Shown in pieces: positions 24,501 to 40,776 of a DNA stretch of 47,352 nucleotides. The stretch comes from Phycisphaera sp. (GTDB taxonomy: Bacteria > Planctomycetota > Phycisphaerae > Phycisphaerales > Phycisphaeraceae). Position numbers and translations under genes: made by a program. The first letter of the stretch is position 1. Each line of letters opens with the position of its first letter. The notes beneath the pieces are model-generated. The model was given only the letters and a program-made list of their open reading frames with translations, did no database searches and was not told the origin of the DNA. The stretch lies in NCBI GenBank assembly GCA_028285385.1, contig JANQPR010000030.1, forward strand, positions 1-47,352, given 5' to 3'.

Positions 24501-24573
24501 AGCTGGCGGCCGGATTCGAACCGGCGTGATCCGTATTACGAGTACGGCGCTTGAGCCACTCAGCCACACCAGC
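24501..24573 (-). tRNA. tRNA-Thr(CGT)
   Basis: Acceptor gctggtg/cgccagc. Anticodon stem ccgta/tacgg with loop ctcgtaa. T-arm gccgg-ttcgaat-ccggc. Confidence 0.65.
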
Positions 24574-24584
24574 GCTGGAGTAAG

Positions 24585-24657
24585 TGACCCCCGTGGGATT
24601 CGAACCCACACCCAACGGATTAAAAGTCCGCTGCTCTGCCGATCGAGCTACGGGGTC
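24585..24657 (-). tRNA. tRNA-Lys(TTT)
   Basis: D-arm tagctcgatcggcagagc. Anticodon stem gcgga/tccgt with loop cttttaa. T-arm gtggg-ttcgaat-cccac. Confidence 0.7.
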
Positions 24658-24686
24658 GACGCCACAGATCGACAACCAACTTGGAA

Positions 24687-24760
24687 TGAAACGGGTGGGC
24701 CACGATCCCACAACCTGCCGGTTAAGAGCCGGCTGCTCTGCCTGTTTGAGCTACCGTTTC
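24687..24760 (-). tRNA. tRNA-Lys(CTT) with non-canonical T-loop ATCGTGG
   Basis: Acceptor gaaacgg/ccgtttc. Anticodon stem gccgg/ccggc with loop ctcttaa. Confidence 0.55.
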
Positions 24761-25473
24761 AGAAAAAAAGGCTTTAGCGCAAGTTCTTGCCTTCTTGCCG
24801 GTGATCGCCCGGCGGGTCTGACCCGCCGAACGCTGCACACGGGGTGGTTAGCCCCTGCACCGACTTTGCCCCTGTTGTTGCGGTGTTGGCCGCACGCAAC
24901 AGCACGCAGGTCCTGCACGGCTGTTCTGAGGTAGGTGTCGAAGGTTGGCCGACCCCGACACCGCTCCCATCCGTTTTGGACGCCTGGGACGTCCGCCGCC
25001 GATCCCTTTCGGGCAGGCGCGGCCGGGTTTCCCCTGCCGCCGTAGGCACTTCCAGACTCGTGCAGTGACGCCTTGCGCGGTCTCCCGCGCTTTCCCAGGA
25101 CCACAACCCGGCGCTCAGAGAGCTGCCTCCGGGTTTCTAGAGTGGTCGATCGGTTCCTGCGATAGGCATCCCAATCCGCAGGTTCCGCGGGCCCGCACTC
25201 CGTGGGTGGCACCACGGCTCAAGGCCCTTGGCTGCTAAGGGTTTCACGCCTGCCACGGCGCTGATCCCTCCCCGGGCGGGTCGGCATCGTTGCGGCGCTG
25301 CCACGCCGCTCAGCCGAGCCGGGTTCCCCCTATCACGCGTTCGCGTGCCCGCCGCCCCGATCAGGCAGACAGGTTTGGTTCCCGAGGGCTGGGAGAACCG
25401 ACCCGACACGCACCTCACGTGTCGGAGCCGGGTAGGAGAGAAAAAGCATTTGAAACCAACACGCCGGCCGGGC

Positions 25474-26706
25474 TCAGTCCTTGTAGGGGTCGAGCTCGTC
25501 CTCGCCCGCCATCGCCACACCGATCGGCGTGAGCGTGTGGACAATGCGCACGGTGTCGCCGTGGGCCGCGAGCACCTCGGGGAGGCGCTTGTAGCAGTGC
25601 GGCGACTCGTCGGTGCCGGCGCCGCGAAGCTCGACACCGGCCTTCTTGACCCAGGCCTTCATCATCGCCGGGGTGATCTGGCCTTCGGTCTTGCGAACAA
25701 AACCTCCGGCCTTCTTGTCCCAGCGCTTCTTGCCTGCGGCCTGGGTCCGGCTCATCACCCGCCCGGCGCCGTGGACGGTCGAGTGCAGCGTCTTGACGCC
25801 GTCCTCGCTCTCGACCCCCTCGAGGACGACCGAGATGTCGCCCATCGACCCGCCGACAAACCCGCGTTGCCCCGGGAACGCCGGCGTCGCGCCCTTGCGG
25901 ACGACCCAGACTTCGAGCTCGTGGCCGTCGATCTCTTGGGTTTCCTTCCAGGCGAAGTTGTGGTGGTTGTGAACCTCCTCCACGATCTTCGTCTTGAGGA
26001 GCCGGGCGACCTTCTGGCACACCCAGTCGCGGCCCGCATAGGCGTAGCGCCCCGCCAGGTGCATGCACCGCAGGTACGACTCGCCCAGGTGGGAGTGCTC
26101 GTGGAACAGTACCGGCGCGACGTGCATGCCGTCCGTGCCACCGCCTTTCTCCACAAAGAACTTCGCGAGCCGGTGGCCGAGGCCGCGGGAGCCAAAGTGC
26201 ACGCCGCACCACACGCGGTCTTGCTCGTCCACGAACAGGTCGACGTAGTGGTTACCCGAGCCGACGGTACCGAGCTGCTTACGGGCCAACTCTTTGAGGT
26301 TCTGTGCGCCGCGGACGCGGATGCGCAGGCCATCGACGAGGCCCCATGCTTCGTCATCGAACAGTTCGTGGTCGACGTCCTCCTGGTTCTTCCGGCCGAC
26401 GCCGAATGAGATCTCCCGGTAGATCAGGTCCATGATCTTGCCGATGCCGCGCTTGACGTCATCGGCCTTGAGGTCGAGGCGGACGGCCTTGTTGCCGCAG
26501 GCGATGTCGTAGCCCACGCCGGACGGCGAGACCATGCCGTGGTACGCCACCACGCCGCCGATCGGCATCGCGTAGCCGACGTGGTGGTCACCCATCAGTG
26601 CCCCGGCCGCCGCGTCCTTGTCGGCCAGGCAGGTCTGGATCTGACGCACGGCCTGCGCATCTGGCACGCCCCAGACCGGCACGCCTTCCATCATCGTGCA
26701 ACCCAT
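25474..26706 (-). CDS. rtcB: RNA-splicing ligase RtcB (3'-phosphate/5'-OH RNA ligase)
   Basis: The conserved RtcB blocks are full length: GYAMPIGGV, GYDIACG, GSGNHYVDL, HFGSRGLGH and GAGR. The start was set at MGCTMMEG; the ORF-track N-terminal extension overlaps tRNA-Gly(TCC). Confidence 0.85.
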   Translation of the reverse strand: MGCTMMEGVPVWGVPDAQAVRQIQTCLADKDAAAGALMGDHHVGYAMPIGGVVAYHGMVSPSGVGYDIACGNKAVRLDLKADDVKRGIGKIMDLIYREISFGVGRKNQEDVDHELFDDEAWGLVDGLRIRVRGAQNLKELARKQLGTVGSGNHYVDLFVDEQDRVWCGVHFGSRGLGHRLAKFFVEKGGGTDGMHVAPVLFHEHSHLGESYLRCMHLAGRYAYAGRDWVCQKVARLLKTKIVEEVHNHHNFAWKETQEIDGHELEVWVVRKGATPAFPGQRGFVGGSMGDISVVLEGVESEDGVKTLHSTVHGAGRVMSRTQAAGKKRWDKKAGGFVRKTEGQITPAMMKAWVKKAGVELRGAGTDESPHCYKRLPEVLAAHGDTVRIVHTLTPIGVAMAGEDELDPYKD

Positions 26707-26756
26707 GTCACACCTCGCTTCCTTTCTACGTTCTCGTGTTTCTTCTTGGTGTTCAA

Positions 26757-26830
26757 TGCGTCGTGCCGGAATCGAACCGGCGGCCTCCGGATTGGAAGTC
26801 CGGCGCTCGGCCATCGTGAGCTCACGACGC
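26757..26830 (-). tRNA. tRNA-Gly(TCC)
   Basis: Acceptor gcgtcgt/acgacgc, a perfect pair. Anticodon stem ccgga/tccgg with loop cttccaa. It lies 50 nt upstream of the rtcB start. Confidence 0.75.
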
Positions 26831-26887
26831 GGAGGGTCTGCATCCTGCCGCTCCGAGCGAATCATTCCTTAAAAGTAGTAGTCACGG

Positions 26888-27142
26888 TTAACGCCGTCGT
26901 ACCGGCCCGTCTTCATGCAGCACTTCTTGAAAGGACTTGCCGGAACCGCAGGGGCAGCGGTCGTTGCGCCCGAGCTTCTCGATCAACTCCTTGTTGCCGT
27001 GCACGACCCGGTTGCCGCGCTTGACGTTCGTTTCGGACGGGAACCCTTTCCTTCGCTTGCTGGTGACCTCAAAAATAGAACTCGTCGTACGTCTCGTTGT
27101 GTGGATGCACGGGGCACCTCCTTTCAAATGGAAAGTGATCAA
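26888..27142 (-). CDS. Small SEC-C zinc-motif protein (84 aa)
   Basis: C-terminal [14 protein letters not shown] is a SEC-C metal-binding motif. The start codon abuts the tRNA-Pro(CGG) 3' end, so the true start and expression are uncertain. Confidence 0.35.
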
Positions 27143-27143
27143 G

Positions 27144-27217
27144 TCAGGGCAGCAGGACTCGAACCTGCGACCTCCCCGATCCGAACGGGGCGCTCTGGCC
27201 GGCTGAGCTACACCCTG
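27144..27217 (-). tRNA. tRNA-Pro(CGG)
   Basis: Anticodon stem ccccg/cgggg with loop ttcggat. D-arm tagctcagccggccagagc. Confidence 0.7.
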
Positions 27218-27271
27218 GCGATGGTGTGGTGAGTCACGCGGACGACGCGCAACCTCCCATGGCTAGGCAAG

Positions 27272-27346
27272 GGTGACGGACGGGACTCGAACCCGCTTCC
27301 GCCGGGTTCACCGCCCGGCACCTCGGCCACTTCGGCTTCCGCCACC
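27272..27346 (-). tRNA. tRNA-His(GTG)-like: 8-bp acceptor stem (G-1:C73) but G33 in the anticodon loop
   Basis: Acceptor ggtggcgg/ccgtcacc. Anticodon stem (g)ccggg/cccgg(c) with loop cggtgaa. T-arm gcggg-ttcgagt-cccgt. Confidence 0.45.
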
Positions 27347-27393
27347 ATCAACCCCGGGGCGCAGTCAAGCTTCGCGGCTTACTTCCGGGGGAA

Positions 27394-27466
27394 TCAGAGC
27401 GGCAGGGTTCGAACCTGCGGCCTCCCGGTCCCAAGCCGGGCGCTCTGCCGACCGAGCTCCGCTCTG
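27394..27466 (-). tRNA. tRNA-Pro(TGG)
   Basis: Acceptor cagagcg/cgctctg (C1:G72). Anticodon stem cccgg/ccggg with loop cttggga. Confidence 0.7.
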
Positions 27467-27481
27467 TCGCGATCAACGCGG

Positions 27482-27552
27482 TGGAGAAGGCGGGACTCGA
27501 ACCCGCATCACCCGCTTGCAAGGCGGGGGCTCTTCCGTTGAGCTACATCCCC
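27482..27552 (-). tRNA. tRNA-Ala(TGC)
   Basis: The G3:U70 identity pair is present. Anticodon stem cccgc/gcggg with loop cttgcaa. Confidence 0.65.
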
Positions 27553-27564
27553 GAGACAATCGAA

Positions 27565-27638
27565 TATCGCCGGGAGGATTCGAACCTCCAACCCCCGGGA
27601 TCTCGGCCCGGGCCCTCTGCCAGTTGGGGTACGGCGAC
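27565..27638 (-). tRNA. Class-I tRNA with anticodon GAG (nominally Leu) and C33; discriminator A73
   Basis: Acceptor gtcgccg/cggcgat. D-arm ta-cccc-aactggca-gagg. Anticodon stem ccggg/cccgg with loop ccgagat. The variable loop is 5 nt. Confidence 0.45.
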
Positions 27639-27657
27639 ACGTTGGTGACACGACAAA

Positions 27658-27730
27658 TACCGCCGGCAGGATTCGAACCTGCACTGAACCGATTCTGAGT
27701 CGGTGCCCTCTTCCGTTGGGGTACGGCGGC
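27658..27730 (-). tRNA. Class-I tRNA with anticodon CAG (nominally Leu), short variable loop; discriminator A73; paralogue of the preceding gene
   Basis: Acceptor gccgccg/cggcggt. Anticodon stem accga/tcggt with loop ctcagaa. The variable loop is tcagt. Confidence 0.5.
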
Positions 27731-27751
27731 TGATCAGGCGTAAGACAGCAG

Positions 27752-27823
27752 TCACTCCGGCAAGACTCGAACTTGCAGCCTTCGGCTTCGGAAACCGATG
27801 CTCTTCCGTTGAGCTACGGAGTG
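27752..27823 (-). tRNA. tRNA-Arg(CCG)
   Basis: Acceptor cactccg/cggagtg. Anticodon stem tcggt/gccga with loop ttccgaa. Confidence 0.65.
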
Positions 27824-27866
27824 TCGTAGGTGCGATCAACCGGCAGTAACGGGCGTGCCCGATGAA

Positions 27867-27937
27867 CGAGGCCGGCGGGAGTCGAACCCGCAACCGCCGG
27901 TTCAAAGCCGGCCGCTCTGCCGTTGAGCTACGGCCCG
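27867..27937 (-). tRNA. tRNA-Gln(TTG)
   Basis: Anticodon stem gccgg/ccggc with loop ctttgaa. T-arm gcggg-ttcgact-cccgc. The 1:72 pair is a mismatch. Confidence 0.6.
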
Positions 27938-27947
27938 GTTGTCGCAG

Positions 27948-28020
27948 TCACCCCGGCAGGACTCGAACCTGCAACCGCCGGATTCGTAGTCCGGGGCTCT
28001 TCCGATTGAGCTACGAGGTG
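27948..28020 (-). tRNA. tRNA-Arg(ACG)
   Basis: Acceptor cacctcg/cggggtg. Anticodon stem ccgga/tccgg with loop ctacgaa. Confidence 0.7.
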
Positions 28021-28026
28021 ATCCAA

Positions 28027-28100
28027 CGGCACTGGCGGGCCTCGAACCCGCGACCTCTTCCGTGACAGGGAAGCGCTCTGGCCAACTGAGCTACAGCACC
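28027..28100 (-). tRNA. tRNA-Asp(GTC)
   Basis: Anticodon stem cttcc/ggaag with loop ctgtcac. D-arm tagctcagttggccagagc. Confidence 0.7.
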
Positions 28101-28185
28101 TTCGAGCCGTGCAGGGCCAAGCCCCCGTGCGTCGTCGTCCGCCTTACCGCGACGCGCGTCTATAACACGGCTCGTGGCACGCCAA

Positions 28186-28257
28186 TCGACCCGGGAGGAT
28201 TCGAACCTCCGGCCTGCCGGTTATCAGCCGGCCGCTCTGCCACTGAGCTACGGGTCA
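28186..28257 (-). tRNA. tRNA-Ile(GAT)
   Basis: Anticodon stem gccgg/ccggc with loop ctgataa. T-arm ggagg-ttcgaat-cctcc. Confidence 0.7.
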
Positions 28258-28262
28258 GTTGC

Positions 28263-28312
28263 GACGGCCCGCCGACCCCCCGGCGCCCGATTGCGCCGGG
28301 GGCGGGCCGTCG
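28263..28312. promoter_or_regulatory. Long GC-rich hairpin (~19 bp in two stem segments) inside the tRNA array
   Basis: gacggcccg...cccccggcgc-ccgattg-gcgccggggg...cgggccgtc. Confidence 0.45.
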
Positions 28313-28361
28313 TCGTTGCATTGATCCGCTCTTCACTTGTCAAAGAACTCGTCACTCGTTT

Positions 28362-28380
28362 CGCGTGAACCGTTCACGCG
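28362..28380. promoter_or_regulatory. Perfect 19-bp palindrome (operator-like) upstream of tRNA-Phe
   Basis: cgcgtgaac-c-gttcacgcg. Confidence 0.4.
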
Positions 28381-28414
28381 TTCCGTCCAACCCCCCACAT
28401 ACTTCCGGGGGCAG

Positions 28415-28486
28415 CCGCTGGTCCAGGAATCGAACCTGGGGCTCCCGCTTTTCACGCGGGCGCTTTGCCGGCTAAGCGAACCAGCG
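28415..28486 (-). tRNA. tRNA-Phe(GAA)
   Basis: Acceptor cgctggt/accagcg. Anticodon stem cccgc/gcggg with loop gtgaaaa. Confidence 0.7.
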
Positions 28487-28496
28487 TTCCGTCCAA

Positions 28497-28569
28497 TCGC
28501 CGCGGCCGGATTCGAACCGGCAGCCTCCTCGTTGTGAGCGAGGCGCTCTCGCCGTTGAGCTACGCGGCA
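28497..28569 (-). tRNA. tRNA-Val(CAC)
   Basis: Anticodon stem cctcg/cgagg with loop ctcacaa. T-arm gccgg-ttcgaat-ccggc. Confidence 0.65.
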
Positions 28570-28647
28570 GCTTTGGCACGCCGACCGCGCAGACGAACCA
28601 AGTCGTCTTCAGCGGCGCGGAAGGACGTGTCGTCGTCGGGTTGTCAG

Positions 28648-28720
28648 TAGCGGCGGCGGGATTCGAACCCGCGGTCTCGAGAACATGACTCTCGCGAGGA
28701 CTCCGCTCCTCTACGCCGCG
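28648..28720 (-). tRNA. tRNA-Met(CAT) with initiator-like traits (unpaired C1/U72, A11:U24)
   Basis: Acceptor cgcggcg/cgccgct. D-stem gagg/cctc. Anticodon stem cgaga/tctcg with loop gtcatgt. Confidence 0.55.
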
Positions 28721-28735
28721 TCCTTTCGTCGTCAG

Positions 28736-28807
28736 TCGCGATGGCTGGATTTGAACCAGCGACCTCTCCCGTATGAAGGGCGTGCTCTGCCGTTGAGCTA
28801 CATCGCG
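28736..28807 (-). tRNA. tRNA-Met or Ile2 (CAT), elongator-type
   Basis: Acceptor cgcgatg/catcgcg. Anticodon loop ttcatac. T-arm gctgg-ttcaaat-ccagc. Confidence 0.55.
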
Positions 28808-28861
28808 TGTTGGTCATGGGTTTCCTTCGTCGTGCTTCCGGCTTTGGGCTTTGCGTTCGAG

Positions 28862-28933
28862 TGGTCACGGTTGGATTCGAACCAACGACTTCCTGCTTGT
28901 CGTGCAGGCGATCTTCCGCTGATCTACGCGACC
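28862..28933 (-). tRNA. tRNA-Val(GAC) with C33
   Basis: Acceptor ggtcgcg/cgtgacc. Anticodon stem cctgc/gcagg with loop acgacaa. Confidence 0.55.
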
Positions 28934-28942
28934 GGGGCAAAG

Positions 28943-29014
28943 TGACCTTGGCGGGACTCGAACCCGCAAGCTCCGCCTTGAGAGGGCGGCGTGCTGCCGT
29001 TGCACCACAAGGCC
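28943..29014 (-). tRNA. tRNA-Glu(CTC)
   Basis: Acceptor ggccttg/caaggtc. Anticodon stem ccgcc/ggcgg with loop ctctcaa. Confidence 0.65.
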
Positions 29015-29848: not shown

Positions 29849-29876
29849 TCATCCCGATGCTCGGTCAGGATCGACA

Positions 29877-30010
29877 AGCCCAACCGAGCCCTATACAAGC
29901 CCTGCCGCCACCACTGAGGCGGTCGACGAAAAAAGGCCCGCCGTAAGTGGCGAGCCTTTCATCGTTTAGAAAGTAGCGGGGGCAGGATTCGAACCTGCGA
30001 CCTCCGGGTT
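29877..30010. repeat. Direct-repeat copy 2 (block, hairpin terminator 29933-29960, tRNA 3' half 29971-30010)
   Basis: aagcccaaccgagccctatacaagccctgc ... aggcccgccgtaagtggcgagcctttc ... agtagcgggggcaggattcgaacctgcgacctccgggtt. It diverges from copy 1 exactly inside the anticodon loop. Confidence 0.7.
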
Positions 30011-30135
30011 ATGAGCCCACTACTGAGGTTTCCCGCAACGTCTTGACTGAACAACTGCTGCAGTCGTCCACGAGAGTTATGGCCTCTCGACAGCCACGCC
30101 CATGTTACTCATGTAGGTCATGTTTTTCAGCTCAT

Positions 30136-30306: not shown

Positions 30307-33300
30307 TCATTCTTTCGAAGAAGCTTGCACATTCTCGAAGATCCTTTGCCAGTGCTGCAGATGGCGGCTCATCGCCGGGTCGCTGTAAAGGTGTGCGAGC
30401 GCATCCCGTCGCTGTTCACGATCAAACGGGATCACGGGGAGCTTGATGCATTGTTGCCAAACCTGACCGAGAATCGTCGCCGGCGTACTAGGGCTCGGGG
30501 CGTTCCTAGCATCGTATTCCACGATCTCCCACCCGTCGCCGGCGCCAGTTATGTCTAAGGAGTTTAGGTCAACAACCGGGTCCGACAGCGAGCCTTCGAA
30601 TTCGAACTTCGACTGCACTTGGAGCTGCATCGATCGCACCGTCATTAGTGCCTGCGCTACCGGCCGACTGCAGTATTTCCCCGATGAACGTTTGATGCCC
30701 CTGTAGATTAAATCAATAACATCGCGATAGATACGTGAGGTTTTTCTCGGATCAGTGGAGATGCTGTTGGTGAGGCGTTGAAACATCTCTTCTGCTTCAC
30801 CAATGTCGAGCCTACTTGTGGGCTCGTGTAGGTCAATTGCACCATACATGTAAATTTCCTCGATGTCGTCAAGTAGATCTTTGCGATTTAAGTAGTCAGC
30901 ATTTTGATCGTAGTACTCGATCGCCGCACGCAGATGATTTGGTTGCTGCGTGTCCATCATCAGCGAGCGCTGTAGTTCACGCGTCCGCGCCAAGTTATCG
31001 AAACTCGACCTTTGTTCGAAATCTAAAACAAGATTTTCGAGGCGTTCACGTAGGTGACTAGCAAGCTCGCGTTGGGTTTTCCGCCCAAACCGCTCTCCGA
31101 GGGCCCTCGTGAAACGTCGAACCGTGCGTTTGCTTGTGTTGTGGGCGAATTGCCAAGGAGACGAATCAAGAATCTCTGCTAGTTGATATAGCCGATGCTC
31201 ATCCTGTTCGGGTACCACAGAATGATCGACAAACGCGCCGCGACGAGACAAACTCTTCAGACCAAGTTTTTCTCGTCCAAACCAGTACGAGTTTCCTCCC
31301 ACTGCGAAAGCTTGAGTTTCCTGTCCCATGAGTTTTTCAATACGCCGAAGATCGGTGTCACTATTCACCCAAACCACTCGATCGACTTTGAGACGAGGCA
31401 TAAAGGTGGGATCCCAGACGCACGCCCCCTGAGGTGACGCTACCCAGCCGATCCCGTGGCTCTTGCTATCGATCGCAGGATGGGACTGCAACTGTTCAGG
31501 CGGCGTTACATTCATTGCGCGGGGATTGGGCGGGCCGCTCGGTGCGGCTACCGCAAGAAGAGCTGCGAGATTTCGGTAAACGTCCTCCTTTATCTCAGGC
31601 AAGAAGGAGATGCGCTCGTAATCGACGTTCAGCCGATCCAGGGTGAGCGGGAGCTTCCCATCTCTGTCAAAGACGGAGAGCGAGGGCATCGCCAACGAAG
31701 GCGGTTCCTTGTAGCCATGACCCGCTGAAATGTTGGGCGCGCTCTCAAGCGCTGGTAACCCACTCGCCTCTCGCTGGATGATAATCCCGTTGCAGACGAG
31801 CGCCGGGGCGTCGCCATAAGTCCAGCCGACGCGAAGGTAATCTTCCGGGGTGAGCCAGTGATAATCGTCGGGCGACGTATCGACCGTCGCCGGTAATTTG
31901 ACAGACTGTGGTAGCTCTTGGCCAATGGTCGAGACTCGGCGAATCGAAGGCCAGTCCAGACAGTACCAATCCCAGGATTCGGCAAGGCTTTCTTCTTGCT
32001 TCTCGCTGTTTGACTGCTGCATAAAAGCTGGCGGGCTGGTGGTGATCACTTCGACTCGTGTACCCGGTTGGTCACGCACCACGTGCTCGATCGCAAGCGG
32101 TCGGTCAGTTAATGATGCCGTGAAGGTTAGACCCCGCTCGGGTTCCGCCAGTACGTGTCGCGTTGTGACTCGGAGTTGCACCAATCGGGGGTCGTCAGCA
32201 ACCAGAAATGCGGCGAGAGCGCCGACGCCGAAGCGGCCCGATCGGAGCACAACCGATCTACCTGAGTCATCCTGGAAGCTTTTCTTCCACACCATTGAAG
32301 AACGAAACGATGCGCCCGCGTTCAGAAAGTAGCGTTGCAGGGTATCAAAGGTCATCCCCATTCCACCATCATCGATGATCAGCGACCATATGCCGTCTTC
32401 GTGTTTTTTTATCTGGACCTCGACGTGGGGCTGCCGGTCGGCGTCATTCTCGAGCCCAAGCGCTCTACGCTCGCGGACTGCATCAACTGCGTTCTGTACC
32501 AACTCGCGTACCGCGATCTCCGGGCGATCTCCGTACAACGGCTTGATGAGTAACTTAAGCAACTCGGCGTCGGCGGCGGAGAAGGTAACGCGGCAGGGCA
32601 CAAATCCCGCTTCCTTACCGAACGTATCTACATCATCAATGTTAGATCGAATCCGTCTGATGTTCAGACCCAAGAGCTTCTCTTGGTATCGCCCAAACAC
32701 CTCGCCCAGGACTGCCCATGAGGTATCGAGCTCGAACTGGATCGCATGCAGCCATTCTTGGGCCCGCAAGAAAAGCTCGATCGATGTGCGTTTGGGGTTG
32801 ATCTTGACCTCGACGACTTCGGGGTCTTCGTTTTTGTCGTAGACAATGTCCTGGACGATGTTGTGTACCCCCCACTCGACCTTACTCTTGGGGGACTTGA
32901 TACCGATGACTTTGAAAATCTGATTGGGCGCGCGATCGGACTGCAGTTGGAGGTAGTCGGCGATGCGCAACAGGACCATCAAGTACACCGTGTGTGTACC
33001 GTGGAACTCACGGACTTGGAACTTGCTGCTGAGGTAATCCAACAAGCAACGGATTGTGGTCCCGTGGCTGCGTGCGATCAAACCGGCAAGGTTGAGTTTA
33101 GGCTCGGCATCGTTGGAGCGTGGGGGGAAATCAGTTTCCGCCGACGCCAAGGCGGGCAGCCCTTTTATGGCCATTTCGTGAGCTAAGCGGTGGTGGTAGC
33201 GGCGGATGAACTCACCAATGTACGCGTGTTGGATCGGGCTCCAAGATTCTGCATTCTCAATTTCGGGCGCCTCGATCGGCTCATCAACGCCGAATAGTTC

Positions 33301-33723
33301 CATGAGCTCGCCCTGACTGAGCCGGCTCGTTTCTTGCACATAGCGAGTCCAAAGTGTGTGCCAGTTTTCTTTGTCAAGCTCTGGTATCGCTGGCTTGGCG
33401 TCTGCGTCAGACACGAGCGCGATGAAGCCGGGTCCCTGCAGGTGCATCGCGGCATCGTGCAAGACCGTCGCAATGACTAAGACTGCCGCGTCCTCAGATG
33501 TAAATAGATCAGTTGACTCATCGGTGATCAGCGCGCTAGCGGTCTCGAGCACGGCTTCAATATGGTCTGGGCCGTGGTCGGTGTACTGGCGAAAGAAGAT
33601 GACCTTATTCTGCTTGATGTACAGCGCAAACGCGTCCAGCACGTCGTGGACTAAACCGCCGATCGGCTTGTTTTCGTACAGCTTGCGAAAGAACGCTGGA
33701 ACTGTGATCGGGTATTCTGGCAT
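30307..33723 (-). CDS. HD-domain phosphohydrolase fused to a GHKL (Hsp90/MORC-like) ATPase, 1138 aa
   Basis: N-terminal H...HD signature (YTDHGPDHIEAV, VLHDAAMH). The Bergerat ATPase motifs are the N-box ELVQNAVDAV, G1 IDDGGMGM and G2 GRFGVG. A C-terminal Rx4H (RELASH) is HEPN-like. It is the last gene of a three-gene operon. Confidence 0.6.
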   Translation of the reverse strand: MPEYPITVPAFFRKLYENKPIGGLVHDVLDAFALYIKQNKVIFFRQYTDHGPDHIEAVLETASALITDESTDLFTSEDAAVLVIATVLHDAAMHLQGPGFIALVSDADAKPAIPELDKENWHTLWTRYVQETSRLSQGELMELFGVDEPIEAPEIENAESWSPIQHAYIGEFIRRYHHRLAHEMAIKGLPALASAETDFPPRSNDAEPKLNLAGLIARSHGTTIRCLLDYLSSKFQVREFHGTHTVYLMVLLRIADYLQLQSDRAPNQIFKVIGIKSPKSKVEWGVHNIVQDIVYDKNEDPEVVEVKINPKRTSIELFLRAQEWLHAIQFELDTSWAVLGEVFGRYQEKLLGLNIRRIRSNIDDVDTFGKEAGFVPCRVTFSAADAELLKLLIKPLYGDRPEIAVRELVQNAVDAVRERRALGLENDADRQPHVEVQIKKHEDGIWSLIIDDGGMGMTFDTLQRYFLNAGASFRSSMVWKKSFQDDSGRSVVLRSGRFGVGALAAFLVADDPRLVQLRVTTRHVLAEPERGLTFTASLTDRPLAIEHVVRDQPGTRVEVITTSPPAFMQQSNSEKQEESLAESWDWYCLDWPSIRRVSTIGQELPQSVKLPATVDTSPDDYHWLTPEDYLRVGWTYGDAPALVCNGIIIQREASGLPALESAPNISAGHGYKEPPSLAMPSLSVFDRDGKLPLTLDRLNVDYERISFLPEIKEDVYRNLAALLAVAAPSGPPNPRAMNVTPPEQLQSHPAIDSKSHGIGWVASPQGACVWDPTFMPRLKVDRVVWVNSDTDLRRIEKLMGQETQAFAVGGNSYWFGREKLGLKSLSRRGAFVDHSVVPEQDEHRLYQLAEILDSSPWQFAHNTSKRTVRRFTRALGERFGRKTQRELASHLRERLENLVLDFEQRSSFDNLARTRELQRSLMMDTQQPNHLRAAIEYYDQNADYLNRKDLLDDIEEIYMYGAIDLHEPTSRLDIGEAEEMFQRLTNSISTDPRKTSRIYRDVIDLIYRGIKRSSGKYCSRPVAQALMTVRSMQLQVQSKFEFEGSLSDPVVDLNSLDITGAGDGWEIVEYDARNAPSPSTPATILGQVWQQCIKLPVIPFDREQRRDALAHLYSDPAMSRHLQHWQRIFENVQASSKE

Positions 33724-33729
33724 TGGAAC

Positions 33730-34254
33730 CTACTTGATTCGAGGTAACATGCAAAACTCAATGAACATCGCCATGCTTCCGACGAACACGATTACGGCGA
33801 TTAATAGCCAAGTCTCGCACCACCGCCATAAACTCGCCAACGAAGGTCTTTTCCGGTAACCGAGGCCAATCACCTCGTCGAACAGATCACATTCTTCGTC
33901 GCGGTTATCCCACCATGAGCCAACAGACGAAACAATCGTTGCCAACATGAAAATACCGACGCCGATTAACAGCCACTGAATGGCTCGCACGGCGATCCTA
34001 GCGTCCTCGGCTTCAAGCCCGACCTTTTCCCAGCTTGAGTAAGCAGTCACTCCGGCGATGACCAAGGCGGTGGAAATGGCTTGGAAGAACGACAGTGCTT
34101 TGAAGGTGTAGTCATTAAGTGACGCTTGCCGTTTGTGTACGAACTTCAGGCGCTCGAGCTTATAACCTTCCTGAAGGCCTTTGGCTTGCTCGTCAGTTGA
34201 ATTTGGGGTCCCCGTTCGCTGAGTGTTGGGATGGTCAGAGATATGAGTTGGCAT
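33730..34254 (-). CDS. Small membrane protein (3 predicted TM helices), operon partner
   Basis: Hydrophobic segments ALSFFQAISTALVIAGVTAY, WLLIGVGIFMLATIVSSV and LLIAVIVFVGSMAMFIEF. There is a 6-nt gap to the downstream gene. Confidence 0.5.
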   Translation of the reverse strand: MPTHISDHPNTQRTGTPNSTDEQAKGLQEGYKLERLKFVHKRQASLNDYTFKALSFFQAISTALVIAGVTAYSSWEKVGLEAEDARIAVRAIQWLLIGVGIFMLATIVSSVGSWWDNRDEECDLFDEVIGLGYRKRPSLASLWRWCETWLLIAVIVFVGSMAMFIEFCMLPRIK

Positions 34255-34338
34255 TATATACCCTGCGGATTGAAAGAAGGAAGACTCGGCGGCACTGCGC
34301 CGCGGCCCTGGAAGAGTTGAAATTCGATTCGCTTGGGA

Positions 34339-36345
34339 TCATGAACATACACAAACACGAACACCTGATGGGGCCTTATTGCTGAAGTCGTGGTCCCTTA
34401 CGTGGAATTCTTTCAGGCTGGAGGCACCGCCACCGTCGGTAACCACAATGACAGAGTCGTATACCTCGAGAAGACTGGATATGGGGCCACTGAGATCCGT
34501 ATTACCACCACGGATACGAATGAGTTCCGAGATCCCAATTTCGCTCGCATTCCATTCTCCTACGATGGATGTATTAGCGGCAACGAGCCTTGAAGGCAGT
34601 TGAGATGCCACCAAGTCTCGAATGAATTCGGCCATTTCGCTTGACTGTAAACGAGCTGACATAGAACCCGACACGTCACAGAGGAGCACTTCTGAGTCGG
34701 AACTTTTTGGCGACCCATTCGGCCATCGAGAAACCGGCTCGCCGACGCAGCGTCTAGCTGCCGCCGCGAACTCGCGCCGCGCTTCTTGGTTTGATGTCGT
34801 CAGGTGGCCGATTGCGTTGCATCGATCAAGTACAGAACGCGACACTTCGTAGATGGCGTTTCCTGCCGGCCCATGATTGACAAGGAAAACTTCCGCGCAA
34901 GGAAGAGCCCGCGCGTAGTCTTCAAGAGCGGCAACAAACTTGGCCTTGGCAGAGCCTTTGTAGTGTTTGACTTCGACTGCCATTTTACAAACTTCTTTGC
35001 CGTGTTCTACGGTCCATAAACCGAAGTCTGGCTGTACGCTCTCTTTGCGTCCCTTCCCGCGTGGATTGGCGAGTTTAACACGACGCTCGCTGATCAGCCT
35101 GAATGGATCGGGCGAGGAGTGAATCGATGCAACCATCGTTTCTTTGAAAGGGAAGCCGATCCTGCCGTTGTCATGATGTACTTCAACGCTATGTCCAACT
35201 AATGCGCGGACAATCTCGGTCGCAACCCAAACGGCGTAAAGTTCGCACCGGTTCTTCCAAATCGGTAACGACAGCACCGACTCGAAGTCACCGATTGAGA
35301 CGTCGACTTCGACAGGCCTGAGGGGGAATTTGCTGGCGATTTCATTTAGGTCGGCACCTAGAGAATCTAGGTCTGCCTTGTCGAGGATTGTCGAGGCGGC
35401 AGAGAGTGCCACAACGAGTGTCCGCAACCAATAATCCGTCTCGTTATGGGCGATAGTCCAGAAATCCAGAGCATCAGATGGATCACTTCCAAGGCGGCGA
35501 TCACGGAATAGTTGTTGTCGCGTCGATGGTTTAAGGTCTAGGTCGAGAAGCATTTTGATAGCCGCAGACGCGATTGAAGCAGTAGCAGCGAGCTGTTGAG
35601 GGCAATCGGGTGGCAGAAGCGATTGGGGCAATGCGAGGTATTCATCGTTGTCGAAAGCGGCTACCCACGCGTGAACATCATCAGCAACTCTTCGAGGACG
35701 ATGTCGGAACGACCGCTGTATCTCTTCACCGACAGGGCCGTTATCCTGAAGCACATGCCACATACTCCAGACAGCTTTTGAGTCAACTGCGGGTACATAT
35801 AAGTCGGTCGTCGCCACCGCATCCCATGACGCCAGCCAATGTCGAAAGTGTTCCAGATCAAGATCCGCTCGATCAACTTGAAGAATCCACTCCGATTCTC
35901 CCTTTGTCGCGTCAGCGTGCTCGAAGAACTCGAGAATGTCGCGAAACATTTCCACGTATGGATGTAGGGAAGTGAAGAACGCCCGAGCAAAAGAGTCCAC
36001 CGTAGCGGATGCGAGCGCATCGTCGAGAGAAGCTGCTCCGGGATTCAGGCGACTTCGGATGCGTTGGTCAAGGCCTTCATCACGCCCATCAAGCTCAATG
36101 CCGCCTAAGCCGCACAGGTATCGCCATGCGGCGACAGGATCGCGATGTATCGGCGCGCTCATCGGAGTTGCGTAAAACGATAATGTCCAGCCGCCGGTGC
36201 CGCGTAACCTGCGCCCACGTCTCTTGCCACGGACTGAGATTTCCAAGCGAAAGTTCTGCTGCCTTCGAGAAGTCTGGCGAAGCGGGAGCCGGCGTTTGAA
36301 CCCGCCACGCTCCGGTGACCGGCGGGCAATGATCCGGCTAGCCAC
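34339..36345 (-). CDS. vWA-domain protein with central PD-(D/E)xK-like nuclease motif
   Basis: The C-terminal MIDAS motif is LLCDVSGSM...TDL...VVTDGGG. The central PDFGLW...MAVEVKHYK resembles a restriction-endonuclease fold. The start may be the internal Met (MSAPIHR). Confidence 0.5.
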   Translation of the reverse strand: MASRIIARRSPERGGFKRRLPLRQTSRRQQNFRLEISVRGKRRGRRLRGTGGWTLSFYATPMSAPIHRDPVAAWRYLCGLGGIELDGRDEGLDQRIRSRLNPGAASLDDALASATVDSFARAFFTSLHPYVEMFRDILEFFEHADATKGESEWILQVDRADLDLEHFRHWLASWDAVATTDLYVPAVDSKAVWSMWHVLQDNGPVGEEIQRSFRHRPRRVADDVHAWVAAFDNDEYLALPQSLLPPDCPQQLAATASIASAAIKMLLDLDLKPSTRQQLFRDRRLGSDPSDALDFWTIAHNETDYWLRTLVVALSAASTILDKADLDSLGADLNEIASKFPLRPVEVDVSIGDFESVLSLPIWKNRCELYAVWVATEIVRALVGHSVEVHHDNGRIGFPFKETMVASIHSSPDPFRLISERRVKLANPRGKGRKESVQPDFGLWTVEHGKEVCKMAVEVKHYKGSAKAKFVAALEDYARALPCAEVFLVNHGPAGNAIYEVSRSVLDRCNAIGHLTTSNQEARREFAAAARRCVGEPVSRWPNGSPKSSDSEVLLCDVSGSMSARLQSSEMAEFIRDLVASQLPSRLVAANTSIVGEWNASEIGISELIRIRGGNTDLSGPISSLLEVYDSVIVVTDGGGASSLKEFHVRDHDFSNKAPSGVRVCVCS

Positions 36346-36406: not shown

Positions 36407-37684
36407 TCACTGGGTCACCGGGTGGCGCTGTCGGAAGCCTGACAGGGCCGCCCTAGCACCCAATAGCCGTTGCTGGGCCGCTTGTTCGTACATGAATCGA
36501 GCTTGGTCCAGGTTGGGCCTTCCATCGGGTGTTCCGATTCCGCTCTCATTCATTTTTGCAAGGGTCAGTTGAGCACGCGGGTCACCCATCACGGCTGCAA
36601 GTACAAAGTACTGGTAGGCCCTCTCATACGAGAGCTCGGTACCGCCGGCGCCGTTGGCATACATGTTCGCGAGCCGGTAGGCCGCGCGACGCTTTAACAC
36701 GGGGTGAGTCTCGTCACTCCGTATGGACCTATCGAGTGAATGCGGCGTCACTTGCGCTTCCTGATCGATCCTCGATTGCAGGATCTCTTTAATGCTGTTG
36801 TGCGCATCGATCAGTTGCTGACGTGTGTTGCCCCGAAGGTTCTCGTGTTCTAAGAGCGTATCGGTTTCTCTGATCGATTCCTCTACTGCCTCCATTGCCC
36901 TTTCAAGTGAAGGCGGATGGCTTCGTTTTAGATCCGGCGTGAACTGAAGCAATTCATTCTCGTAGAGAAACAGATTTGAAATCACGGCGCCGATCGCAGG
37001 CGACCGGCCCATCTCAATCTGCTTTCGGACGGCCCATTCGTCCGCCCGACGCTCATATCTGCGTTGCTTCGCAGGCGAGGGCCTTAGTTGCCCGGTATGG
37101 ATCGCATCGTTGGCGTGGTGGCCATACTCGTGCGCCACTATGTGCGACAAGGCCGCCAGTTGCATATGACGCGACCGTCGGGCCAACTCTGGATCTGTGC
37201 GCCATATTTGGGCCTGTTGAGGCGTGAGTCGGGCGAACTTCTCGATTGGCCTAGCGGTGCCACCTTCAATCGAAAGGCGTTCGTGCGTGCTGACGATGTA
37301 CTCTTCCGCTACCCGGTTGCGACTAAACGTACTCTCGACAACGAGGGCATCACAATAGAGCTGTAGACCGATGATCAGCCCCATACCGATATCGATATGA
37401 CGCCGTCCGTCCGGTGAGATACTAGCGATAGCGTTGTGGAAAGTCGGATCGGCCACAAACCGAAAATGTATCTGTCGTAACGGATCTGCCTCCTCGTCGG
37501 GAAGTGAATCGAGGAACGAGTCTTTGACCTGCTCGGCCAGTGACCTTGCCTGCCGCGCTACTTCATTGTGCTGAGCCAATGTTGTGGGCACTGCGATGGA
37601 AAGAAAAGCGATGACAGCGAAAACGATCGATACCAGTGCGTGTTTCATTTCGGCACCTTTCGATTCAAGGAAGCTGCTGTTCAA
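36407..37684 (-). CDS. Zn-metallopeptidase (HExxH) with C-terminal Sel1/TPR-like repeats; signal/TM anchor
   Basis: N-terminal hydrophobic VSIVFAVIAFLSIAVPTTLA. HEYGHH zincin motif. Sel1-type repeats in the last 100 aa. Confidence 0.55.
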   Translation of the reverse strand: MNSSFLESKGAEMKHALVSIVFAVIAFLSIAVPTTLAQHNEVARQARSLAEQVKDSFLDSLPDEEADPLRQIHFRFVADPTFHNAIASISPDGRRHIDIGMGLIIGLQLYCDALVVESTFSRNRVAEEYIVSTHERLSIEGGTARPIEKFARLTPQQAQIWRTDPELARRSRHMQLAALSHIVAHEYGHHANDAIHTGQLRPSPAKQRRYERRADEWAVRKQIEMGRSPAIGAVISNLFLYENELLQFTPDLKRSHPPSLERAMEAVEESIRETDTLLEHENLRGNTRQQLIDAHNSIKEILQSRIDQEAQVTPHSLDRSIRSDETHPVLKRRAAYRLANMYANGAGGTELSYERAYQYFVLAAVMGDPRAQLTLAKMNESGIGTPDGRPNLDQARFMYEQAAQQRLLGARAALSGFRQRHPVTQ

Positions 37685-38492
37685 GGTACTGGTCCAGTTC
37701 TTCTCGAATACCGCGCTCTTCCCGCGAGAGTTGCGTTGGGTCTTTGTCGCGGATCTGCCAGTAAGCCTGTATCTCTTCCTGAAACTCGTGTGCGACCCAT
37801 TGGTCCCGAAGCGACTTCAGGTGATTAGCGGCCATGCTCAGCCTTCGGACATGGGCTTTCATCAGAACTTCCTGCCGTCTAACTGGGTCAACCTCGTTGT
37901 TTAGATGGGTATCGATGGCGATGACCGAATTGATGGCTTGCATGATGTCGGCTGAGGTCAGATCGGCATCCCCCCCGTAATATGACCCTTTCGTTGTACT
38001 TTCGAGAACTGAACCGAAGTGTGCCCTGCCCCTTCGACCTACTTCCCCAGGTTCTGTCTTGCCGTCGCGCATCTGCTCTCCTACTCGATCTGTGTGGCTT
38101 TCCAAACCAGTGCCGCTACCTTCATGGTGATGCTGCCCCCCATGTCTATGAACTGAGCTGAACGAGTACGTGTTTACCACACTGATGCAGAGGATCGCCG
38201 CACCAAACAACGCGAAGAAGACGCCCGGCCCGACGCGGATGAGCTTGATCTTGACTGATCCGGTCGAGAACTCCGCTTCCTGAGATTTGAAGATGCTCGC
38301 GCGAAATAGGTTCCACCCCAGAACCAGGGAAAGCCCGCCGAAAGTAACGATGAGCAGGCGCTCAATAACACGCCCATACTCAATGACAGTATTGTTGCTG
38401 TAACTGTCCGCATGCACGTTTGTTCCCACGAGCAACGTGCTAGCCAATGCAACTAGCGAGAAGCACGCGAAACCGGTGTGTAGTTGCTTCAT
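37665..38492 (-). CDS. Membrane protein of unknown function with C-terminal coiled coil
   Basis: Signal peptide plus two or more TM segments. It overlaps the downstream peptidase gene by 20 nt, which suggests an operon. Confidence 0.45.
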   Translation of the reverse strand: MKQLHTGFACFSLVALASTLLVGTNVHADSYSNNTVIEYGRVIERLLIVTFGGLSLVLGWNLFRASIFKSQEAEFSTGSVKIKLIRVGPGVFFALFGAAILCISVVNTYSFSSVHRHGGQHHHEGSGTGLESHTDRVGEQMRDGKTEPGEVGRRGRAHFGSVLESTTKGSYYGGDADLTSADIMQAINSVIAIDTHLNNEVDPVRRQEVLMKAHVRRLSMAANHLKSLRDQWVAHEFQEEIQAYWQIRDKDPTQLSREERGIREELDQYLEQQLP

Positions 38493-39015: not shown

Positions 39016-40776
39016 CTAGAAAGGGACACGCAGGCCGATCCCAGCTGGGGGCTTAGGCCGATTACAGAAAGGTTGGTGGGCCTCGTTGTCACACAACCCG
39101 TAGCCGGCCGTGGTGTCGATGTAGTCGAGCAGGCGCCGTGTCGCGTCTTCCATCGCGTCGAGTGAGTCTTGGCTCGTAGGCGGGTAGCACGGCGGATTCA
39201 TCCCGTCGCGAAGGAGGTCCTGGAGACTCAGCTCACCGGTGCCATGTTGATCGACGTTACGCTTGAACCGGTGCAGAGACTCCATCAGGCCGGCCATGGT
39301 CGCGGTGTACCTCGCCCACCGGTGGCCGTCCCAGGACATGGGTTCCTTGCTCCGCCGCTCGCGGAACCGGTCGCACAATATGACCGCGGCGTCGCGGCCT
39401 CGTTGCGCCAACCCCTCAATGAGATCGGGGGCCATCGCGAGGTTCATGCCGCCTTCCTGGTCATTGAGCCAGACTTCGACGACCCGGTCGCGGAACATGT
39501 CCAGTTGCAGGTAGGAGCTGTCGTGCCAGTTTTGAGCGCTCGAGAAGATGCCGCCCATGGCGAGGCCGGCGAGGTCTTTGATCGTGGCCGCGGCGGGCTC
39601 GTTCACGATGTCCCGGAGGTCGCCGAACTGGCTGCCGCCCCGTTGCTGAGGCAAGTAAAGGCCGGTGTCTCGGGCCCCGCGACGCGTGATGTTGCCGTGG
39701 CGGTCGGTGTACTTCAGGTTGATGCCGAATGTGGGCCAGCGGGGAAACAGGCTGTCGAAGCGGTGCACGGGGAAGTTGCTGGTGATCCCCCCGTCGCTGA
39801 ACCAGACGCGGGACAACGGTTTTTCCGACACATCAAAGTTGACGGTGTACGCCGGGACCATCGAGAATAACAACGGGAAGCTGAGGCTCATCCGTACCGC
39901 GGCGATCACGGGCATCTCCTCGCCCATGGTCAGATACAGCTTTCCGTCTCGCGGCCACGTCTCTGACTGCCTGGCCTCGGCGTGCCGGACGAGGTGGTTG
40001 ACGACCGGGTGTGGGAAGTAGCCCCGCCACTCCTCTTCGTCGAAGCCGAATCGGTTGAACCCGTTCGGCATCTCCACGGGTCGGCCGTAGCTCAGGCACG
40101 TGGTGACCATGCGCAGGTCGATCGCGCGGTAGCCCGGCGTCGTGACCATGGCTTGGAGCGGGCCGGGAACCTTGGCGTGGTGGAGGTGGCCGAAGGTCAG
40201 CACGTCGTCGTGGTCGAGCCCGGCGGCCTCCTGCATCTGTGCGTATAGCCACGCGGTCAGCGGCGCGATTGTGCCCGCGGGCGGAGGGTTCCCGTTGGCC
40301 ATGCCGGAACAGATCCCGTAGTTGTTGGCCAGCAGCGGCTTGTGGTTCCACCAGGCACGGGTGAGCGCGGCACCGATTTTGAGGAGGCCTACTTTTATCC
40401 TCTTCTTCTTGCGACCTTCGTCTTTGGTGACATACTTCAGTAGCTGCTTGTGCAGCTTTACGGTGGAGAGGTCGGGCCGGAACAGGTCGGTGATGCGGCC
40501 GTCCTGCTTCAGATCGTCCGGGATCCCGCCCAACAACTCAAAGCCTTCGAGCGAGCCCGTTTCACGCCGCCGGTACTCGGCGGCGGCCGCGATCCCGGCG
40601 GCGATACCCCCGGCGGAGGTCCCGCCGATCCCGATGAGCGTGAACTCCTTGGCGATGTGTTCGATGGCGCGCGGGTAGACGATCCCGCTGGTGACCCCGC
40701 CCCGCATCACGAGGTCGCAGCACCGCTCTTCCCAACTCTGTTCTGGCATGTGGTTCCCCTGAAAATGGTTGCGCAT
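39016..40776 (-). CDS. Patatin-like phospholipase
   Basis: Oxyanion GGVTSG and nucleophile elbow GGTSAGG (GxSxG). 586 aa. Confidence 0.75.
   Translation of the reverse strand: MRNHFQGNHMPEQSWEERCCDLVMRGGVTSGIVYPRAIEHIAKEFTLIGIGGTSAGGIAAGIAAAAEYRRRETGSLEGFELLGGIPDDLKQDGRITDLFRPDLSTVKLHKQLLKYVTKDEGRKKKRIKVGLLKIGAALTRAWWNHKPLLANNYGICSGMANGNPPPAGTIAPLTAWLYAQMQEAAGLDHDDVLTFGHLHHAKVPGPLQAMVTTPGYRAIDLRMVTTCLSYGRPVEMPNGFNRFGFDEEEWRGYFPHPVVNHLVRHAEARQSETWPRDGKLYLTMGEEMPVIAAVRMSLSFPLLFSMVPAYTVNFDVSEKPLSRVWFSDGGITSNFPVHRFDSLFPRWPTFGINLKYTDRHGNITRRGARDTGLYLPQQRGGSQFGDLRDIVNEPAAATIKDLAGLAMGGIFSSAQNWHDSSYLQLDMFRDRVVEVWLNDQEGGMNLAMAPDLIEGLAQRGRDAAVILCDRFRERRSKEPMSWDGHRWARYTATMAGLMESLHRFKRNVDQHGTGELSLQDLLRDGMNPPCYPPTSQDSLDAMEDATRRLLDYIDTTAGYGLCDNEAHQPFCNRPKPPAGIGLRVPF

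Follow-up and report, generated by a model that had tools for sequence, protein, structure and literature searches.

Introduction

Described precedents and counterparts of the locus treated here are systems in which a GHKL ATPase and an effector are joined in one polypeptide, such as VcSduA, an ATPase-nuclease fusion active in defence (PMC12137116), and the paraMORC-HEPN fusions of defence systems (PMC3710099), together with the small SLATT membrane effectors of the cyclic-oligonucleotide-based antiphage signalling system (CBASS) and its relatives. The locus lies at positions 30307-36345 of contig JANQPR010000030.1 of a Phycisphaera sp. (GCA_028285385.1), the whole 47,352-nucleotide (nt) stretch of which was analysed and is called the window. 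It consists of three co-oriented minus-strand genes, which encode a Y4bO-family nuclease with a von Willebrand factor A (vWA) domain, a small protein with three transmembrane (3-TM) segments, and a protein of 1138 amino acids (aa) that combines an HD phosphohydrolase domain with an Hsp90-like ATPase and whose family is referred to as HD-GHKL. An initial annotation had taken the three genes for one operon encoding a single defence system. The comparisons presented here favour a different arrangement, in which two candidate immunity modules, independent of each other and acquired horizontally, adjoin one another within a defence-type island; we give this reading an even chance of being correct. 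Judged by the gene associations found, module A is the Y4bO-family gene alone and module B the pair of 3-TM and HD-Hsp90-like genes.

The 1138-aa protein resembles the type I-D Shedu protein VcSduA, which carries a GHKL ATPase and a DUF4263 PD-(D/E)xK domain, in combining an ATPase, a clamp-like middle region and a predicted nucleic-acid-degrading effector in one chain, and the likeness extends to the proposed dimeric action, with the effector under the control of the ATPase (PMC12137116). Whereas the DUF4263 nuclease of VcSduA is C-terminal, the putative effector of the window protein is an N-terminal HD domain and its ATPase is specifically Hsp90-like; moreover, a subset of its family has a membrane-protein partner, and no Shedu match was obtained with PADLOC. 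With Hsp90, HtpG and TRAP1 the 1138-aa protein shares a Bergerat-fold ATPase with all motifs as well as a middle-domain-like region. These chaperones lack its N-terminal HD domain of 370 aa and differ from it in the C-terminal region, and unlike the universal housekeeping HtpG, the HD-Hsp90-like genes are patchily distributed and found on mobile elements.

SLATT effectors are comparable to the 3-TM gene product in being small multi-TM proteins encoded beside, and translationally coupled to, a large cytoplasmic enzyme. The window protein itself matches no SLATT model, whereas the partner of a Pectobacterium relative of the 1138-aa protein is a true SLATT_4. In contrast to CBASS-type SLATT systems, no cyclase or nucleotidyltransferase is present, which makes activation by a nucleotide signal unlikely.

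For the remaining gene, the closest counterpart is y4bO of plasmid pNGR234a of Sinorhizobium fredii NGR234, a homologue that is built of the same three parts, shares 33% identity over the full length and is itself uncharacterised, so that the match gives the window gene a family but no function. The top structural matches to the nuclease core of the Y4bO-like protein are the CARF- or SAVED-regulated nucleases Can2, Cap4 and NucC and type II restriction enzymes, at 6-15% identity. Unlike the former, it contains neither a CARF nor a SAVED sensor, and the candidates for regulation are its vWA domain, with a metal-ion-dependent adhesion site (MIDAS), and its helical N-terminal domain.

Organisation of the Locus

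The three open reading frames (ORFs), at 34339-36345, 33730-34254 and 30307-33723, are co-oriented and tightly spaced, as had been annotated: the spacer between the Y4bO-like gene and the 3-TM gene measures 84 nt, whereas that between the stop of the 3-TM gene and the HD-Hsp90-like gene measures 6 nt. The annotated position of the low-GC island, starting at the second copy of a repeat, likewise agrees with the profile of guanine-plus-cytosine (GC) content and the repeat coordinates. The GC fraction is 0.52-0.58 at ~29.5-39 kb against 0.62-0.70 on either side, and the drop, from about 0.64, begins beside copy 2 (29874-30015, no strand assigned) of a ~140-nt direct repeat, copy 1 of which lies at 19049-19190. 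At this border of the island, copy 2 consists of the 3' half of a tRNA, followed by a terminator hairpin and a conserved block of 32 nt. Within the 84-nt spacer, a consensus scan marked a short GC hairpin followed by a T-rich tract (34287..34302, minus strand), which may be a weak terminator dividing two transcription units; the number of hairpin/T-tract sites in that scan does not exceed shuffle expectation.

Co-occurrence of the Three Genes

Conservation of the trio was assessed from both ends. The Y4bO sample consisted of 29 other loci, made up of 27 genome loci, fetched with flanks of up to 10 kb, and further contigs, of which 6-10 kb was examined; the HD-GHKL sample consisted of 80 metagenome loci, 22 IMG/VR loci and eight individually fetched contigs. 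Searches by tblastn with the other island proteins found an HD-GHKL or 3-TM gene in none of the 29 Y4bO loci and, reciprocally, no Y4bO relative was present in any of the more than 100 HD-GHKL loci. A scan of viral contigs gave no Y4bO relatives, and clustering of the ORFs neighbouring Y4bO genes revealed no conserved partner, the recurring neighbours being occasional integrases and McrB-like ATPases only. The nearest Y4bO relative (71% identity, locus L031) is followed by unrelated small ORFs, and a pair of 3-TM and HD-GHKL genes in Arenicella occurs without a Y4bO gene.

Because the trio is not conserved elsewhere, an outcome that had been named beforehand as speaking against a single system, the central claim of the initial annotation is left unsupported. 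For each gene taken singly, defence is still the leading hypothesis. In the loci sampled, the Y4bO-like gene behaves independently of the 3-TM and HD-GHKL pair, and the evolutionary link appears to be limited to the latter two genes. Independence of modules A and B is supported both by this absence of co-occurrence and by the hairpin in the 84-nt spacer as against the 6-nt spacer inside module B. Close gene spacing in a defence island is thus no basis for assuming one operon-encoded system.

The HD-Hsp90-like Protein

The 1138-aa protein is encoded at 30307..33723 (minus strand, as are all its parts). Residues 44-333 (32725..33594) match the Pfam family HD-CE (PF24391) with an E-value of 3.1e-42 (145.5 bits against a cut-off of 27), and the ligands H50, H54, H89-D90, H177, H220 and D256 are invariant among 36 homologues, in line with the N-terminal HD phosphohydrolase that had been annotated. 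A Bergerat-fold GHKL ATPase of the Hsp90 type follows at aa ~376-560 (32044..32598), recognised by a PDB profile match to HtpG, by a partial match to the NCBIfam HtpG model and by motifs that are invariant in the same 36 homologues, namely E407/N411/D414 (ELVQNAVDA), D452/G454/G456 (DDGGMGM) and G496-R-F-G-x-G501 (GRFGVG). The region at aa ~561-830 (31234..32043, boundaries approximate) aligns structurally with the Hsp90 middle domain in Foldseek, and the C-terminal region at aa ~831-1138 (30310..31233) is mostly helical according to the AlphaFold2 secondary structure. More than 1100 relatives of the protein were found across many phyla, with a patchy distribution and mostly one sequence per cluster.

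The ATPase had been annotated as of Hsp90/MORC type. Searching the PDB with a profile of the 36-homologue alignment retrieved the N-terminal domains of HtpG, GRP94, TRAP1 and Hsp90, the best being HtpG (E 3e-20), and in Foldseek the AlphaFold model (predicted local distance difference test, pLDDT, 81) aligned with the N-terminal and middle domains of TRAP1 (4ivg) over ~500 columns (E 4e-10, probability 1.0). Since both the profile search and the structural comparison point to the Hsp90 family, the ATPase is classified, from sequence and predicted model, as Hsp90-like and not MORC-like; the first half of the annotated type therefore stands and the second does not. MORC and paraMORC were rejected as candidates, given that the HATPase_c_3 match at aa 401-510 is near-threshold but below the cut-off (24.2 against 25 bits) and that all top sequence and structure matches belong to the Hsp90 family. 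An HD fusion is not mentioned in the 2008 MORC paper.

An HtpG orthologue was considered and rejected as well. With the NCBIfam HtpG equivalog NF003555, which has a cut-off of 371 bits, the protein reaches 64.1 bits and matches at aa 380-558 only, so that a mapping of the protein to a housekeeping chaperone, which the initial annotation had listed as a result that would count against its proposal, was not obtained. The annotated C-terminal Rx4H HEPN-like motif, by contrast, did not survive: R1105 of the RxxxxH motif is conserved, but a His at +5 is kept in about half of the 36 homologues, and no HEPN model of Pfam matches. Compared with most relatives, the close clade has a longer C-terminal region, and W1089 and P1099 are conserved together with R1105 in the last ~60 aa. 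For neither the HD region nor the C-terminal ~300 residues did PDB sequence searches give a meaningful match.

Membrane Partners of HD-CE Proteins

Hydropathy of the 174-aa protein (33730..34254, minus strand) shows three hydrophobic segments, at ~aa 51-71, 86-114 and 145-173, which bears out its description as a 3-TM protein. A word-indexed homology search with it returned the protein itself and one fragment only, while exhaustive HMMER searches recovered 160 cluster representatives at 50% identity, mostly 145-200 aa long. Conserved residues of this family are W114 at the end of TM2, R118, E121, R134 and P137 in the TM2-TM3 loop, and W145 and E147 at the start of TM3; the alignment is too diverged for pattern scanning. 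Neither the window protein nor 60 family members match SLATT. One family member matches DUF4231 (E 0.007), to which the Pectobacterium SLATT_4 protein also has a weak match, and six of 60 members match 8xMP (PF24838) below its cut-off of 30 bits, the best at 24.7 bits (E 2.2e-5); the window protein has no such match.

As a separate observation, the 269-aa family member P0217 carries an N-terminal extension with sub-threshold similarity to nucleoside 2-deoxyribosyltransferase (E 2.4e-4, 21.7 against 28.8 bits). Domains of this type accompany membrane effectors in nucleotide-signalling conflict systems.

The 3-TM family adjoins an HD-CE protein in four informative contexts: the window, Arenicella, Nonomuraea and a Pantoea plasmid, the homologues outside the window being those of loci L034, L140 and L141. 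In Arenicella, a 164-aa 3-TM homologue (43% identity, E 2e-47) is encoded 13 nt upstream of the gene for an HD-GHKL protein that shares 46% identity with the 1138-aa protein, on an element that also encodes a relaxase, an integrase and a DNA methylase. A PLSDB search with the 3-TM protein gave two distant matches at 27% identity, in Nonomuraea and on a plasmid of Pantoea agglomerans. In the former, the gene order is reversed, with a 4-nt overlap between the 3-TM gene and the stop of a gene for a 919-aa protein with HD-CE and HATPase domains; in the latter, it is convergent to the gene of a 916-aa HD-CE protein, with an integrase beside. Both proteins were recovered by the hidden Markov model of the 3-TM family at E 1e-40 to 1e-55, and no further member was found in ~145 loci. 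The HD-CE partners in Nonomuraea and Pantoea are only 20-33% identical to the 1138-aa protein, over parts of their length. Because these partners are so divergent, the pairing of 3-TM and HD-CE genes is, by such comparisons, old, spans sub-families and is variable in gene order. No information came from the nearest relative of the 3-TM gene (locus L143), a pseudogene on a contig of 1.5 kb.

Membrane proteins of other kinds accompany further relatives. In Pectobacterium zantedeschiae (pair at 8001-11691 of locus L144), a 167-aa 2-TM protein that scores 27.9 bits with SLATT_4, against a cut-off of 27, is encoded 2 nt downstream of the HD-GHKL homologue; two toxin-antitoxin pairs and an integrase/AlpA/Ash/primase module adjoin. 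In Spirosoma, the gene preceding the HD-GHKL homologue encodes a membrane protein of 218 aa whose C-terminal part is beta-rich, and a homologue of this membrane protein (E 3e-91) stands divergently upstream of another HD-GHKL gene in locus L057. Across these loci the pairing of HD-CE proteins with small membrane proteins is recurrent. A universal small-TM partner for every HD-GHKL protein was considered and rejected, most relatives being without one: no membrane partner was found for the close relatives P0002, P0003, P0005 and P0006, nor for nearly all of the more distant relatives of ~950-1000 aa. A plasmid search with the HD-GHKL protein returned only housekeeping htpG and weak matches, and a search of E. 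coli genomes with the Pantoea module gave no match.

The Y4bO-Family Nuclease

The gene had been annotated as encoding a 668-aa protein with a nuclease core and a vWA domain. The 668-aa version begins at an upstream GTG (36345), whereas the database protein of the contig (P0121) and 90 of 90 homologues begin at M62; for this reason the gene is placed at 34339..36162 (minus strand) and its true product is probably 607 aa. The Pfam family Y4bO_3rd (PF27477) has a precomputed match on P0121 and on all 90 relatives. While the annotated length was thus not upheld, the two domains were, by conserved residues as well as by the predicted model (pLDDT 87.8).

Briefly, an all-helical N-terminal region of no recognisable family (aa 1-285, 35308..36162, from the secondary structure of the AlphaFold2 model) precedes a PD-(D/E)xK nuclease domain (aa ~290-475, 34738..35295) with the predicted catalytic residues D379, E397 and K399, and this is followed by the vWA domain (aa ~488-607, 34342..34701), in which D496-x-S498-x-S500, T555 and D576 form the MIDAS; all three lie on the minus strand. 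Among 40 homologues, both the QPD...EVKHYK motif of the nuclease and the DxSxS...T...D residues of the vWA domain are invariant or nearly so, the latter lying in the conserved stretches DVSGSM...GGxT...TDxDG. In the model, the PD-(D/E)xK motif is placed on a restriction-endonuclease-like fold and the MIDAS on a Rossmann-like vWA fold. The helical region has no Pfam or PDB sequence match, and a PDB sequence search with the profile of the Y4bO family gave nothing meaningful.

Genomic Context and Proposed Mechanism

Neighbouring genes were surveyed from crude longest-ORF gene calls, taking the two nearest ORFs on each side. Among 99 ORFs near Y4bO genes, Pfam identified integrases, AAA_21, McrBC, AAA_15, AIPR, DUF4238, a type I specificity subunit, UvrD and YhcG, and on pNGR234a itself y4bO is flanked by an S8 peptidase on one side and by SIR2 and TIR proteins on the other. 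It is these defence-island neighbourhoods that make the case for an immune role of the Y4bO family. For the HD-GHKL family, the case is built on carriage by mobile elements, patchy distribution, conserved catalytic residues, effector-type membrane partners and the precedent of GHKL-effector fusions. Relatives occur on 22 IMG/VR contigs, and in locus L115 (positions 1-9399 of metagenome contig Ga0590114_0007892) two HD-CE/GHKL paralogues surround a metallophosphatase and a CHAT-TPR protease. Beside these paralogues, the same locus also contains DUF433/DUF5615 toxin-antitoxin-like pairs, a stacking typical of conflict loci.

In module A, an invader-derived or invader-modified protein may be bound by the vWA/MIDAS domain, alone or jointly with the helical N-terminal domain, and this binding would free or position the central PD-(D/E)xK nuclease to cut DNA. 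In module B, the Hsp90-type ATPase and middle domain would form a dimeric clamp driven by ATP. On sensing its trigger, which might be a phage protein treated like a chaperone client, the clamp would activate the fused N-terminal HD phosphohydrolase, and this domain would break down nucleotides or nucleic acid. In those family members, a minority, that have a membrane partner, the clamp could act in addition on this protein, which would damage or gate the membrane; growth arrest or abortive infection would be the outcome. Where present, the membrane partner is probably a second, membrane-directed effector, because the partners are unrelated, interchangeable small membrane proteins, one of them a SLATT_4. 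As no nucleotide cyclase is present, gating would have to proceed via protein contact or a product of the HD reaction. The gene structures, the domain identities, the conserved catalytic residues, the independence of the two modules and the recurrent membrane partners of HD-CE proteins are observed, whereas the immune function, the trigger, the substrates and the direction in which ATPase and membrane protein signal to each other are inferred.

Several observations weigh against this interpretation of two immunity modules. The neighbours of HD-GHKL genes are heterogeneous and mostly ordinary metabolic genes, with HepT, PIN and transposases also present, and few of them match PADLOC defence models. 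The PADLOC check proposed in the initial annotation was carried out with the models of PADLOC 2.0 (2023) and identified no defence system for any of the three proteins: the Y4bO-like and 3-TM proteins had no match at all, and the HD-GHKL protein only a weak match of its GHKL region to REase_II (E 1e-4). NCBIfam (beyond the GHKL region) and PHROGs also gave no informative match for the three proteins, and literature searches on Y4bO, HD-CE, 8xMP and the combination of Hsp90-like, HD and defence yielded no description of these families. A 3-TM partner was found in just one of ~100 loci sampled with the HD-GHKL query, by which the partner appears dispensable for most of the family, and the association between 3-TM and HD-CE genes comprises four contexts plus a pseudogene. 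In addition, SLATT effectors are normally gated by nucleotide signals that an HD hydrolase is unable to produce, and all three genes may be co-transcribed in this organism.

Alternative Explanations

It is unlikely, though not to be dismissed lightly, that neither module has an immune role. The HD-Hsp90-like protein would then be a stress or signalling enzyme, for example a chaperone-coupled phosphohydrolase of nucleotides or second messengers, tethered to the membrane by the small protein, and the Y4bO-like protein would serve DNA repair or the maintenance of mobile elements. Such roles would accord with the housekeeping genes that form most HD-GHKL neighbours, the absence of a PADLOC match, the extension of Hsp90 similarity over both N-terminal and middle domains, and the presence of >1100 homologues in many phyla. 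They are harder to reconcile with a score far under the HtpG equivalog cut-off (64 against 371 bits), with a patchy distribution of mostly one sequence per cluster, with relatives on mobile elements, a plasmid and viral contigs, with the pairing of one relative with a SLATT_4 effector-type protein, and with the restriction and abortive-infection genes that are plentiful around Y4bO.

A reversal of roles within module B is rather improbable, yet a serious alternative. Here the membrane protein would be a sensor or anchor responding to envelope perturbation or phage DNA injection, leaving the HD domain as the sole effector. Most members of the family have no membrane partner, and in these the HD domain must suffice as effector; furthermore, the charged or conserved residues R118, E121, R134 and P137 in the TM2-TM3 loop would suit contact with a soluble partner. 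Against this stands the interchangeability of the partners, which are unrelated membrane proteins and include a SLATT_4, elsewhere classed as an effector. Partner swapping is typical of effectors rather than sensors, as in CBASS and the pyrimidine cyclase system for antiphage resistance (Pycsar).

The originally annotated arrangement, in which nuclease-vWA protein, membrane effector and HD/GHKL ATPase form one operon and a single defence system, is very improbable. Co-orientation, short spacers, a common low-GC island and the lack of a strong promoter or terminator between the three genes would favour it, but the other two genes accompany Y4bO in 0 of 29 loci, no HD-GHKL locus contains a Y4bO relative, even the 71%-identical Y4bO relative is trailed by unrelated small ORFs, and the Arenicella pair does without a Y4bO gene.

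Least probable of all is that mobile elements use the modules for addiction or competition, in a toxin-antitoxin-like or anti-plasmid manner, and not against phages. An ArdC-like anti-restriction gene in the island and the toxin-antitoxin pairs, integrases and relaxases beside relatives would be in keeping with this, but there is no conserved antitoxin-like small partner and many HD-GHKL genes lie off recognisable mobile elements.

Other Features of the Window

An array of 31 tRNA genes covering nearly all amino acids occupies 19617-29014 (minus strand), interspersed with genes for an RtcB tRNA ligase (25474-26865) and an SPFH/Band7 protein (21408-22922). This 10.8-kb tRNA block is flanked by the ~140-nt direct repeats, and low-GC DNA lies outside both, as though the island had received the array as an insertion; possibly the array is mobile and acts as a buffer against anticodon nucleases. 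The repeat copies, at 29971-30060 and 19146-19235 (minus strand) in this respect, both contain an intact T-arm and acceptor 3' half, and copy 2 also has an initiator-like anticodon stem-loop (GGGCTCATAACCC). A complete tRNA fold is obtained from neither copy, so that both resemble att-type remnants left by a tRNA-Met gene. Within the array, ARAGORN reported a tRNA with an undetermined two-base anticodon at 23102-23176 (minus strand) and Rfam an extra tRNA-like match at 23034-23100 that ARAGORN had missed; the elements at 23034-23176 may be degenerate or unusual tRNAs.

Several other genes of conflict type accompany the studied ones. Upstream of the latter, at 36407-38492 (minus strand), the gene of a 275-aa protein with TM segments overlaps by 20 nt the start of a gene for a 425-aa protein, which combines a TM segment at its N terminus, a zincin core with HExxH and weak Lit/Peptidase_U49 matches (PADLOC Lit E 5e-5), and Sel1 repeats at its C terminus. 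These two genes may be another defence pair in the island. A 586-aa patatin-like phospholipase (39016-40776, minus strand; Pfam E 1e-11; no PADLOC match) is encoded at the far GC transition. Beyond the island lie genes for the ArdC-like anti-restriction protein (ArdcN plus zincin MPTase-PolyVal, 41837-42853, minus strand) and for a 1077-aa DnaE-type polymerase alpha subunit, possibly DnaE2 (43709-46942, minus strand), which together suggest remnants of a conjugative or integrative element. Elsewhere in the window, diverged repeats at 8610-8780, 9582-10308 and 14643-15570 that encode dockerin-like GDYNGNGQVEQGDLDLVLQNWG motifs are common to two paralogous genes; taken with a GC content of 65% and with the closest Y4bO relatives, they suggest that the DNA is of planctomycete origin.

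Implications

The Y4bO and HD-CE families are catalogued in Pfam, yet uncharacterised in all sources searched. A broader proposal can be put forward tentatively, as a possibility rather than an expectation: the HD-Hsp90-like proteins, with their >1100 relatives, might form a widespread, previously unrecognised immune class whose clamp senses phage proteins as clients and fires the HD domain, individual sub-lineages having recruited interchangeable, membrane-disrupting partners of the 3-TM, SLATT_4 or TM plus beta-rich kind, while Y4bO would represent a second new single-gene system. E. coli should be a workable host for the Pectobacterium pair of HD-GHKL and SLATT_4 genes. Were the HD-Hsp90-like family indeed immune, a chaperone-type ATPase would join the known sensors of bacterial immunity; a SLATT-type membrane effector operating without a nucleotide cyclase would raise the question of how it is gated, and the Y4bO family would provide a rare example of a single-gene nuclease under vWA/MIDAS control.

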